DNA of 59,568 nucleotides, the filler included. It is 3 parts of 3 records of this genome, joined end to end, with 100 filler letters (N's around TTAATTAATTAA, not from the genome) between each part and the next. Parts side by side here need not be neighbours in the genome. Positions count along the whole stretch, not along the records: positions 1 to 25,978 come from DRR723986_18377; 2 more parts are not named here. One strand, written 5' to 3'. The translations under genes were made by a program, and so were the position numbers. A model generated the notes under the pieces. It saw only the letters and a list, made by a program, of their open reading frames with translations, had not been told where the DNA came from and did not search any database. Of this stretch, positions 1 to 54,367 are shown in pieces. The first letter of the stretch is position 1; the number at the start of each line of letters is the position of its first letter.

Positions 1-1065
1 CCACGAAAAATCAATGTCAAAATCGGGAGGGTTGGTTCGATACAAATTGATGAAACGCTCAAAGTAGAGATCTAATTCTATGGGGTCAACATCTGTTATT
101 CTTAAGAGATAAGCAACGACACTGTTAGCACCACTTCCTCTTCCCACATAAAAATATCCCTTAGATCGTGCATAGGAAACAATGTCCCAATTCATTAAAA
201 AGTAAGAGACGAAACCCATTTGTTGAATGGTGTCTAATTCTTTTTTAACCCGATCATGGACCTCTTGTGTTGGGTTAGGATAACGATACGCCATTCCTTC
301 TTGGCAAAGTTGCTCTATGAGCTCAGCATCTTCAACTTCGCAGCCAGTATAGGTCTCTTGATTTTGTGGAGGCGCAGTATTTGAAAAATCAAAGAAAATT
401 TTTGAAGAATCTATGATATATTTTGTGTTCTCAATAATCTCAGGATATTTTTCATAAATCTGAAGTAATTCATCTTGTGGCAACATTTTATAATGCGGTT
501 CGGCTTGTTCAGATAAAGGCAGTTTACTAAGTAAGGTGTTAAGATCGATTGCACGTAATAATCGGTGCGCATTGAAATCTTTTTTGTTTCTGAATGTGGC
601 TGTTTGTAGGATGACTGCTTTTGATGTGTCTATTTTTTTGATACGCACATAATCTAAATCTTCTGGTCGGATGCCGATAAATTCGTGGGGTTTTAGTTTT
701 CTTTTTTTGTTTGTACGATCAAAGGGATAAACAATAAAAACGTGTTTGAAAGCAGGAGCTTTGGTGGTAATTTCTGCCCCAGTATGAATCACGTTGGTGA
801 GATAACGATTCATCTCTTCAAAACCTTTATTGTTTTTAGCAATACCAACATATTTTTGATCAACACCATTTCTAAAGTCAATACCAATAAGCGGTTTGAT
901 ATTAAATCGTTCGGATTGCCGTATAAAATCAAGACAGCCTGAAGTATTGTTGATGTCGGTTAAAACAAGTGATTTGACACCGTTTTCAACGGCTAATTCT
1001 AGGAGAGTTCGGGGGCTATAAGTGCCGTACCGCAAACTGTAGTAAGAGTGGGTATTTAAATACAT
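1..1065 (-). CDS. dnaE: DNA polymerase III alpha subunit, DnaE2-like second copy (5' part; runs off window edge)
   Basis: Not in the ORF track. Manual translation of both ends: ATG at 1065 gives MYLNTHSYYSLRYGTI (PHP start), and the window edge reads GYFYVGRGSGANSVVAYLLRITDVDPIELDLYFERFINLYRTNPPDFDIDFSW (GRGS and PDxDxD catalytic motifs of PolIII alpha), in the same frame. Confidence 0.93.
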   Translation of the reverse strand, partial: MYLNTHSYYSLRYGTYSPRTLLELAVENGVKSLVLTDINNTSGCLDFIRQSERFNIKPLIGIDFRNGVDQKYVGIAKNNKGFEEMNRYLTNVIHTGAEITTKAPAFKHVFIVYPFDRTNKKRKLKPHEFIGIRPEDLDYVRIKKIDTSKAVILQTATFRNKKDFNAHRLLRAIDLNTLLSKLPLSEQAEPHYKMLPQDELLQIYEKYPEIIENTKYIIDSSKIFFDFSNTAPPQNQETYTGCEVEDAELIEQLCQEGMAYRYPNPTQEVHDRVKKELDTIQQMGFVSYFLMNWDIVSYARSKGYFYVGRGSGANSVVAYLLRITDVDPIELDLYFERFINLYRTNPPDFDIDFSW

Positions 1066-1197
1066 TTTTTTGGTTTGTTATGTTGTTTATCCTCAGAATT
1101 AGAGAGGATGAAAAGCACACTTCTACCAAAAAATGTGGAGTTCTACCAAGAAAAGATTTAATCTATTCGCGTTTGGGTTTAAAACCAATGTTCCGAC

Positions 1198-1220
1198 TAA
1201 GGTCGCAATTTGCGACCTTA
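1198..1220. repeat. Palindrome P1, TAAGGTCGCAA-T-TTGCGACCTTA
   Basis: Perfect 11-bp arms with 1-nt centre; 20/23 identical to the core of the palindrome inside ORF6N. Confidence 0.95.
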
Positions 1221-1236
1221 AAAAATTGACATGCTT

Positions 1237-1267
1237 TTAATGGTATCACAGATTGTGATACCATTAA
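1237..1267. repeat. Palindrome P2, TTAATGGTATCACA-GAT-TGTGATACCATTAA
   Basis: Perfect 14-bp arms with 3-nt centre; shares the TCACA-N3-TGTGA core with P3. Confidence 0.95.
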
Positions 1268-1293
1268 GTGACGTGCTATATTATTTTGGCTCA

Positions 1294-1827
1294 TCATTTA
1301 GAACTTTTTCTAAAACCGATTTGTTCTCGAGGTTCTTGTTCTTGAGTCACGAATTTGGTGAGACAATCAAAAACAACTTCAATTTTTTCGTCTTGAGCAA
1401 TCATCTTTTTCTTGATTTCCTCAAGTTCTAAAAGGTTATCCTTATGCGTCAACACCATTTCTTTAAGTTTTTTGTAGACTCTCATGATATGAATATTGAC
1501 GGCTACAGCTCTGTCACTACGCAAAACACTTGAGAGCATTAATACCCCGTGTTCAGTAAAAACATAAGGCAAATATTTTCGGTGATTTCCTTTACCATTC
1601 TCTAAGGTCACAAATTGTGACCTTAGAGAATTATATTCTTCCTGGTTTAATTGAAACATGAAATCTTCAGGGAACCGGTTAAGGTTTCGTTTTACTGCTT
1701 GATTTAAAACTTTGGTCTCAACGTGATAAAGCTCTGCCAAATCTTTGTCCAACATCACTTTTTGACCTCTAATTACATAGATTTTATCAGAGATAACAGC
1801 TTCAGGTATAATAATTTCGTTGTGCAT
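1294..1827 (-). CDS. ORF6N (KilA-N-like) DNA-binding domain protein
   Basis: IRGQKVMLDKDLAELYHVETKVLNQAVKRNLNRFPEDFMFQL, LPYVFTEHGVLMLSSVLRS and C-terminal IGF are typical ORF6N motifs. ATG at 1827 (alternative TTG at 1845). Confidence 0.92.
   Translation of the reverse strand: MHNEIIIPEAVISDKIYVIRGQKVMLDKDLAELYHVETKVLNQAVKRNLNRFPEDFMFQLNQEEYNSLRSQFVTLENGKGNHRKYLPYVFTEHGVLMLSSVLRSDRAVAVNIHIMRVYKKLKEMVLTHKDNLLELEEIKKKMIAQDEKIEVVFDCLTKFVTQEQEPREQIGFRKSSK
1597..1631. repeat. Intragenic palindrome P3, ATTCTCTAAGGTCACAA-A-TTGTGACCTTAGAGAAT
   Basis: Perfect 17-bp arms inside the ORF6N CDS, encoding (N)SLRSQFVTLEN. Confidence 0.95.
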
Positions 1828-1855
1828 TACAGGAGGGCTAGTCAAGTTTTCAACA

Positions 1856-54335: not shown

Positions 54336-54367
54336 ACACCGGCCATCTGGCCGGTGTTTTTGTTTTT
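54336..54367 (+). terminator. Intrinsic terminator
   Basis: ACACCGGCCA-TC-TGGCCGGTGT followed by a T-tract. Confidence 0.85.

Follow-up and report, generated by a model that had tools for sequence, protein, structure and literature searches.

The ORF6N Locus

The window analyzed is a stretch of 59,568 nucleotides joined from three parts, the first of which (positions 1 to 25,978) comes from record DRR723986_18377. Near its beginning lies a gene for an ORF6N-domain protein, whose neighbors are an SPFH-domain gene and the 5' part of a dnaE2-like gene for the DNA polymerase III alpha subunit (PolIII-alpha). Three palindromes, P1 to P3, are found at this locus (Table 1). P3 lies within the ORF6N coding sequence (CDS), has the half-site ..AAGGTCACAA and codes for ..NSLRSQFVTLEN.. 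(..SLRSQFVTLE..). Its length, arms and encoded peptide, as given in a preliminary description of this DNA, were confirmed in the list of inverted repeats and by direct reading. The coordinates likewise place P1 and P2 where that description had put them, past the ORF6N stop codon and upstream of the dnaE2-like gene, both genes being co-directional. The centers of P1 (1209) and P2 (1252) are 144 and 187 bp upstream of the PolIII-alpha ATG (1065). It was also correct that the cores of P1 and P3 differ by a single compensated A>G/T>C pair and the center base. The 43 bp between the centers of P1 and P2 had been equated with four helical turns; the arithmetic is right, but the spacing is not a feature of the family, since other loci show 23, 27, 45, about 49-52 and 58 bp.

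Table 1. Features of the ORF6N locus, with positions counted along the window.
Feature	Position	Strand	Description
ORF6N gene	1294..1827	-	177 aa from ATG at 1827; stop codon 1294-1296
P3, perfect 35-bp palindrome within ORF6N CDS	1597..1631	.	codons 66-77; 17-nt arms, center 1614
Predicted recognition helix region	1684..1722	-	codons 36-48 (VETKVLNQAVKRN); helix H38-47 of helix-turn-helix
P2, non-coding palindrome	1237..1267	.	14-nt arms, 3-nt spacer; half-site GGTATCACA
P1, non-coding palindrome	1198..1220	.	11-nt arms, 1-nt center; half-site AAGGTCGCAA
3' end remnant of second ORF6N gene	1163..1195	-	..RNIGFKPKRE; stop 1163-1165; directly after P1, out of frame with P1
Direct repeat TTGGTAGAAG / TTGGTAGAAC	1120..1149	-	about 55-85 bp upstream of dnaE2-like start
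PolIII-alpha gene, 5' part (355 codons), short dnaE2-like paralogue	1..1065	-	Pfam PHP + DNA_pol3_alpha

The ORF6N protein matches Pfam PF10543 over residues 21-107 (E 2.1e-38, 130.9 bits against a cut-off of 27.8), three PDC-S05 models of PADLOC (best PDLC04856, E 7.7e-65, residues 1-172 of 177) and PHROG 'anti-repressor' families. In the open reading frame (ORF) list its frame is given as 1294..1845 when a TTG start is used. The AlphaFold2 model has a mean predicted local distance difference test score of 83.5, and DSSP assigns a helix to residues 38-47. The residues encoded by P3 (67-76) form the end of helix 62-71 and part of a low-confidence loop, 72-87. In structural comparisons for a KilA-N/APSES-type DNA-binding fold, Foldseek found no match to the model in the PDB at E <= 0.001. 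With VIA-align, the N-terminal domain gave its best score with the N-terminal domain of granulovirus Orf22 (Z 6.3), followed by the Mbp1 DNA-binding domain (Z 4.6) and the DdrC N-terminal domain (Z 4.4), all in the middling range of the tool. Complex prediction with two copies of the protein scored 0.24 against a mark of 0.32, which counts neither for nor against a dimer. A search of the six-frame translation of the window with a 103-sequence profile, for which the remnant at 1163-1195 is too short, found no second ORF6N gene.

Chance and Genome-Wide Occurrence of the Palindromes

A chance origin of P1-P3 is excluded. A 23-nt degenerate pattern has two matches in the window and none in 100 shuffles, and the three window matches of the TCRCA-N3-TGYGA core are all at P1-P3, against a shuffle mean of 0.30. 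In the whole window, P1-P3 are three of the four perfect palindromes with arms of at least 10 bp and a loop of at most 3 nt. The fourth, at 54336-54357, is G+C-rich, has a 2-nt center and is unrelated in sequence to P1-P3.

Genome G001, the nearest one compared (99% identical at the locus), stands in for the source genome in genome-wide scans. It has a single ORF6N gene, and the long pattern is found there at the same two places only. The scan for the core that the preliminary description had proposed gave six other matches in G001: the four dyad-symmetric ones have 5-bp arms and the other two are asymmetric even within the core. There is no wider regulon, as the long cognate site occurs nowhere else in G001.

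Palindromes across the ORF6N Family

Homologues were taken from two sets. The first comprised 41 related genomes, 14 of which had a match (up to seven in one genome), and the second the best 80 loci of 524 confirmed stretches from a genome collection, labeled as Bacteroidota, Nitrospirota, Omnitrophota, Spirochaetota, Planctomycetota, Margulisbacteria and further groups. At the codons aligned with P3, perfect arms of at least 9 bp were found in 71 of 118 distinct sites and of at least 13 bp in 53. The mean arm was 10.3 bp, against 3.1 bp in synonymous shuffles (114 stop-free sites, 200 redraws each). Arms of at least 9 bp appeared in only 0.06% of the shuffles, and at 75 of the 114 sites no shuffle reached the observed arm.

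The arms also covary. In an alignment of 102 sites, 84.8% of the cells in the 15 inner pairs are complementary, and 13 of these pairs change on both sides. Cells with a double change numbered 318, compared with 112 ± 10 in shuffles, none of 500 reaching 318. When the partner column was slid by 1-3 positions, pairing was 31-42%, against 76.8% in register. The nearly invariant part of the palindrome is CA-N3-TG only, and the remainder varies while staying complementary. Enrichment of palindromy at the SQxxT codons with covarying arms, the homologue test set by the preliminary description, was obtained.

The encoded peptide changes together with the symmetry, as in LRSQIATS, MVSQSVIP, WRTQIASS, LRCQFGTS and SSSQIVMM. 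In three relatives of 41-50% identity (L027, L028 and L032) the palindrome is kept in another reading frame (..ELITICD.. or ITICD). Since the peptide changes and a second frame is used, the symmetry of the DNA comes first and the peptide conforms to it, in agreement with the position of the encoded residues in the model. This also accounts for the variation of this segment among ORF6N proteins, rightly stated in the preliminary description. Judging from these comparisons, palindromy is under selection and not a by-product of the peptide. In L058 (1749-1821), two family palindromes with different outer arms lie 46 nt apart inside one ORF6N CDS.

Such symmetry could also be structural. The palindromes would then act as a DNA cruciform or as a hairpin in mRNA or single-stranded DNA, in RNA stability or processing, as replication or transfer signals or as the target of a structure-specific enzyme, functioning through pairing itself with ORF6N not being the reader. 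The small invariant part fits this, as do extragenic arms of 21-22 bp, which are beyond any helix-turn-helix site, and the predicted RNA folds of P1, P2 and P3 (-14.9, -17.6 and -24.8 kcal/mol, z-scores -4.3 to -8.3); an AT-rich center would favor extrusion. On the other hand, G.U-type intermediates are almost absent: one-sided states make up 0-4 of 102 per pair across 11 inner pairs, a pattern that suits a DNA duplex contacted by a symmetric protein better than a hairpin of RNA. In imperfect copies, the interior mismatches in the sense strand are mostly A.C (15 AC, 10 AA, 4 GT), so that a hairpin in the sense RNA is not favored. On the gene strand no T-run follows P1 or P2; neither was predicted to be an intrinsic terminator on either strand, and P3 was so predicted on the antisense (+) strand only. 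As the relationship between helix and site described below would also be left unexplained, a purely structural role is improbable.

Relationship between Helix and Half-Site

The relationship between the protein and its site was analyzed in 76 proteins whose site has arms of at least 6 bp. Palindrome-encoded residues aside, residues 43 and 40 were the most informative on half-site bases -2 and -3, and residue 39 on base -5, all three lying in helix 38-47 and together holding almost all of the information on these bases. Q43 with V, A, I, T, M or H at position 40 goes with TCACA (34 of 34), E43 with R40 goes with TCGCA (31 of 31), R43 with TGCCA (5 of 5) and K43 with TTCCA (4 of 4). Wherever K39 is present, base -5 is G (51 of 51). 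All four combinations of the residue-39 and residue-40/43 rules occur, and L027, with its palindrome in the other frame, obeys them as well (R39, V40 and Q43 with ATCACA).

In a tree from which the columns of helix and palindrome had been left out, all eight independent pairs differing in TCACA/TCGCA also differ in E43 (sign test, p 0.008). For residue 39, 3-5 of five independent pairs changed in the same way and none in the opposite one, which is not significant (p 0.06-0.25).

The window protein carries K39, V40 and Q43 and, under the family rule, fits P3 only. Since residues 39, 40 and 43 predict the half-site bases, P3 is most likely the ORF6N protein's own predicted dyad-symmetric binding site. 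The preliminary description had offered as one reading that ORF6N binds an operator written into its own CDS and uses P1 and P2 to control the polymerase; the first half of it is supported by inference from the covariation of palindrome and helix.

Copies outside the Coding Sequence

In 563 kb of loci, the ORF6N motif accounts for 65 perfect palindromes (arm of at least 10 bp, loop of at most 3 nt). Another 60 are situated elsewhere, and about 40 of these belong to the ORF6N palindrome family. External copies were defined by arms of at least 8 bp and the CA-N3-TG center. They stand beside the genes, as the preliminary description had suggested checking in the flanks of homologues: 28 of 36 are within 200 bp of an ORF6N gene. 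Among the 23 upstream copies, 6 are cognate to the gene, 13 belong to another class and 4 accompany genes in which the internal palindrome is missing; a few of those counted as another class (L012, L031 and L072) are internal palindromes of neighboring broken genes. The five downstream copies comprise two cognate and three others, P1 and P2 included.

The six cognate upstream copies are located 25-43 bp before the start codon, in four independent contexts, and the distance from such a copy to the internal one is 233-300 bp in ORF6N relatives. The upstream copy of L046 matches the internal one exactly over 33 bp. The exact 23-mer of P1 is found upstream of the ORF6N genes of L061 and L063, which have no internal palindrome. 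Arms are longer and closer to perfect in the external copies than in the internal ones, reaching 21-22 bp. In two paralogue-rich genomes, non-cognate copies were accompanied by a matching paralogue in three of four cases.

The external copies also bear on the idea that the palindromes have no function, a quasi-palindrome from a conserved peptide having been perfected and lengthened by template-switch mutation and the external copies being decaying debris. In its favor, external copies are found beside a gene remnant, strains differ in the outer arm of P2 by an uncompensated change (1240 A>G), and many non-cognate sites lack a matching paralogue in the genome. This idea is nevertheless extremely improbable, because synonymous shuffles almost never give arms of at least 9 bp, the symmetry survives amino-acid changes in many phyla and a second reading frame, the external arms are longer and more perfect than the internal ones, and the helix-site rule holds.

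Origin of P1 and P2

NCBIfam cannot separate dnaE from dnaE2 on the 355-aa fragment encoded in the window. The open frames of this polymerase paralogue are 1019-1047 aa long in four congeners, compared with 1455-1460 aa for the second paralogue, and the dnaE2 label is therefore plausible. Three congeners (G003, G004 and G006) have dnaE2 without ORF6N and without such palindromes upstream, and in G002 and G007 an ORF6N gene stands at the same place beside dnaE2. The only upstream stretch common to all six congeners is the TTGGTAGAAG-type motif, which is closer to dnaE2 than P1 and P2 are, and the direct repeat at 1120-1149 is likely to be the native promoter or control region of dnaE2. The TTGGTAGAAGT motif was dropped as a regulon box: neither in G003 nor in G006 is the 13-nt form of the repeat enriched across the genome, and the reversed control has more matches there than the motif itself.

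Within the remnant that follows P1, the 27 nt at 1163-1189 share 92.6% identity with the 3' end of the G007 gene, which is syntenic and intact; the stop codon is part of the match. G002 carries the same remnant after two external palindromes. The syntenic ORF6N genes of the window, G002 and G007 are mosaics. Between the window and G002, identity is 88% in the first ~100 nt and 83% in the last ~120 nt, and nothing aligns in the middle ~290 nt save two 14-nt matches. The internal palindrome of G002 equals the central 25 nt of P2 (25/25), and one of its external palindromes has the P3 core (21/21, with the center inverted).

Under the family rule, P1 (TCGCA) corresponds to the K39/R40/E43 class and P2 (ATCACA) to an R39-type class. 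An intact array of three ORF6N genes without external copies is found beside dnaE2 in L037, a Crocinitomicaceae record. Its three classes correspond to those of the window palindromes: GTCACA to P3, GTCGCA to P1 and ATCGCA to P2, which itself reads ATCACA. P1, P2 and the remnant are read here as leftovers of an ORF6N array that once had more members, or of the sites belonging to those members, with deletions that stopped at the palindromes. The window protein is predicted to bind P1 and P2 poorly. The view of P1 and P2 as relics, put forward in the preliminary description, is thus supported in part only, by the 33-nt ORF6N remnant after P1 and by the different central blocks of the syntenic genes.

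The second half of the operator reading, in which P1 and P2 would be working operators for control of dnaE2 by an ORF6N-type protein, is not supported. It could draw on their position upstream of the dnaE2 start between co-directional genes, on the adjacency of ORF6N and dnaE2 in the window, G001, G002, G007 and L037, and on a P1 that is invariant in three covering runs differing elsewhere by up to 2.4%. Against it, K39, V40 and Q43 fit P3 and neither P1 nor P2, whose classes are other ones, and G001 has one ORF6N gene only. Three congeners keep dnaE2 and the proximal repeat without such palindromes, the sequence conserved upstream is closer to the gene, and dnaE2 stands beside one of the 80 loci (L037; 147 neighboring genes). 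The published SOS boxes of Bacteroidetes differ from P1 and P2, and none lies in 1066-1293 (0 of 17 window matches to GGA-N5-TCC and 0 of 11 to CTAA-N5-TTAG, with at most one mismatch). Such control is thus very improbable; the best explanation is that P1 and P2 arrived together with the ORF6N DNA and do not belong to the control region native to dnaE2.

Exchange between Copies and Population Data

The palindromes could also be recombination sites or cassettes, exchange of internal with external copies or with paralogues diversifying the protein or shuffling gene halves. The mosaic genes of the window, G002 and G007 agree with this, G002 mirrors the window (P2 sequence internal, P3-like core external), relatives often have gene fragments that stop or start around residues 57-88, and tandem ORF6N arrays are common. 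Nevertheless, the borders of the exchanged block are about 100 nt to either side of the palindrome and not in it. This ~290-nt block carries the matching helix, and moving a 25-31-nt cassette by itself would separate the site from its protein. No coding sequence that might act as a donor surrounds P1 and P2, the window ORF list has no recombinase gene beside the locus, and integrases make up 7 of 75 upstream neighbors at the 80 loci.

Twenty-two public runs were listed, as contigs only; 19 of them hold the stretch or part of it, and four were compared. No joints at the locus were found in the contigs of these four runs, although contigs can hide rare rearrangements. P1 was unchanged in the three runs that cover it and P3 in all four, one strain being 2.4% different, so the variants at P3 that the preliminary description had looked to were not seen in these contigs. 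The change at 1240 in the outer arm of P2 was present in three of three covering runs, the RNA run stopping short of P2; the contig of this RNA library spans 1507-2012 only and gives no evidence of transcription. With no joints, no P1 or P3 variants, and no silent cassettes beyond the 23-31-nt palindromes themselves, the donor cassettes of the preliminary description are not supported, and recombination through the palindromes appears as improbable as a structural role.

In X1 and X3 the contigs break at 1153-1267, with records ending at 1153 and 1162 and starting at 1202 and 1267, and contig C402 of G001 stops 128 bp past the stretch compared. The breaks are read as an assembly effect of long palindromes and not as biology.

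Neighborhood of ORF6N Genes

The neighbors at the 80 loci are very diverse and often housekeeping genes. In eight loci of Chitinophagaceae type (L036, L040, L041, L044, L046, L047, L056 and L090), ORF6N lies between the two parts of a split metH, for the S-methyltransferase and B12 parts of methionine synthase. In five Polaribacter-type records (L049, L068, L078, L094 and L109) it lies between parE and parC. In both settings the gene is inside what looks like a housekeeping operon. ORF6N is beside comM-like genes in four loci and beside hsdM/hsdS in one. Neighbors of DNA-damage type, which may be due to chance, are an HTH-peptidase S24 repressor-like gene (L086), a DnaQ-like exonuclease (L087) and ruvC (L038). 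The window ORF6N is not in a prophage setting, given its SPFH-domain and dnaE2 neighbors, the same position in congeners and the location of most of the 80 loci between housekeeping genes.

Proposed Explanation

The explanation favored here, as reasonably probable, is that P3 is a site recognized by the ORF6N protein itself, as would hold throughout the family, and that P1 and P2 are sites of sister classes left from a decayed array. The helix-turn-helix, through helix 38-47, would read the half-site NNNNN-CA, inverted across a fixed 3-nt center. Helix and site would belong to one central block of about 290 nt and change together, and the palindrome-encoded peptide, at the end of helix 62-71 and in the low-confidence loop, would just follow the DNA symmetry. 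The site might serve autoregulation, since in many relatives a cognate copy is present 25-43 bp before the start codon, and/or self-recognition like that known for BstA and its aba element (see below), the family being a candidate for phage defense. We infer binding, dimer formation and a regulatory or defense outcome from these relations.

Several observations weigh against this explanation. Of the 28 copies near genes, 16 are non-cognate, 8 are cognate and 4 are beside genes without a palindrome, and in three of five genomes checked (with two ORF6N matches each) the non-cognate copies have no matching paralogue. The upstream region of the window ORF6N has no palindrome, so autoregulation there would have to act only through the internal site. 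Arms are shorter than 9 bp in 47 of 118 sites, many of which keep a longer arm with one mismatch, and L061, L063 and L074 have no internal palindrome. Perfect arms of up to 17-22 bp are far above what a helix-turn-helix half-site needs, and such very long arms hint at an added structural requirement (cruciform or hairpin) or a mutational drive. Finally, the helix codons are about 70-90 nt from the palindrome and are exchanged with it as one block, and part of the helix-site association could be linkage and not function. The free assortment of the two sub-rules would argue against pure linkage, as does their agreement with the common amino-acid/base preferences of general recognition rules.

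A further possibility, which is unlikely, is that ORF6N genes are self-contained 'lock-and-key' modules of orthogonal classes, and that keys without locks such as P1 and P2 are kept by selection as decoys or immunity marks against incoming ORF6N of other classes from phages or mobile elements. Deletions would then have removed everything around the kept keys, and self and non-self would be marked in an aba-like manner through dyad-symmetric DNA.

If binding is confirmed, the family would offer an unusually clean natural case of protein-DNA co-evolution, with dozens of orthogonal helix/site pairs and a simple code (Q reads A, R/E reads G, K reads G), useful to understand and engineer helix-turn-helix specificity. 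It would also be a case in which DNA symmetry dictates a conserved protein segment, and in two reading frames. The palindromic site may provide a handle on the control of a widespread and uncharacterized family of phage-defense candidates, or on its self/non-self discrimination. For the window, the dnaE2-like gene is probably not under ORF6N control.

Comparison with Known Systems

No description of the ORF6N palindrome was found in the literature searched, which did not cover subscription journals. Palindromic sites inside the gene of the protein that binds them are known from parS within spo0J/parB, where the site of a dimeric helix-turn-helix protein is conserved with the gene. parS is one nearly invariant 16-bp sequence across bacteria, whereas the ORF6N site has diverged into many classes together with the putative recognition helix and determines which peptide is encoded there. 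The auxiliary operators that serve DNA looping from within genes, such as lac O2 in lacZ and gal OI in galE, lie in the target gene and not in the repressor gene. They resemble the ORF6N relatives that have a promoter-proximal and an internal copy a few hundred bp apart, but the internal ORF6N site is in the gene of the presumed binding protein, and no copy is present upstream of the window ORF6N.

In Bacteroidetes, LexA boxes of non-canonical form (GGA-N5-TCC and CTAA-N5-TTAG) are reported upstream of mutagenic-polymerase genes, including imuA-imuB-dnaE2 (PMC8565304). P1 and P2 are also palindromic and upstream of a mutagenic-polymerase gene in the same phylum, but their dyads and spacing differ from the boxes described there, and they travel with ORF6N and not with dnaE2. 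PDC-S05, whose models match the window protein, is a candidate single-gene defense family only; the one representative tested in a preprint (10.1101/2024.09.26.614923) is described there as a Virulence_RhuM-domain protein and may not be ORF6N.

Among the published systems compared, the closest analogue is BstA with its aba element (Owen et al. 2021, PMC8585504). BstA is described there as a prophage-borne abortive-infection protein with an N-terminal KilA-N-like DNA-binding domain and a second domain. The aba element is 63 bp long and spans the bstA start codon (29 bp upstream and 34 bp of CDS); it depends on terminal direct CCCGCC repeats and is not palindromic. Both systems would combine a small DNA-binding protein with a short cognate element that overlaps its own CDS and differs per variant, which for ORF6N is a computational result. 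They differ in that the ORF6N site is a perfect palindrome in mid-gene, and that the ORF6N gene lies between chromosomal genes. A cis site inside the gene of its binding protein is thus already known as a kind, of which the ORF6N arrangement would be, relative to what is in print, a variant.

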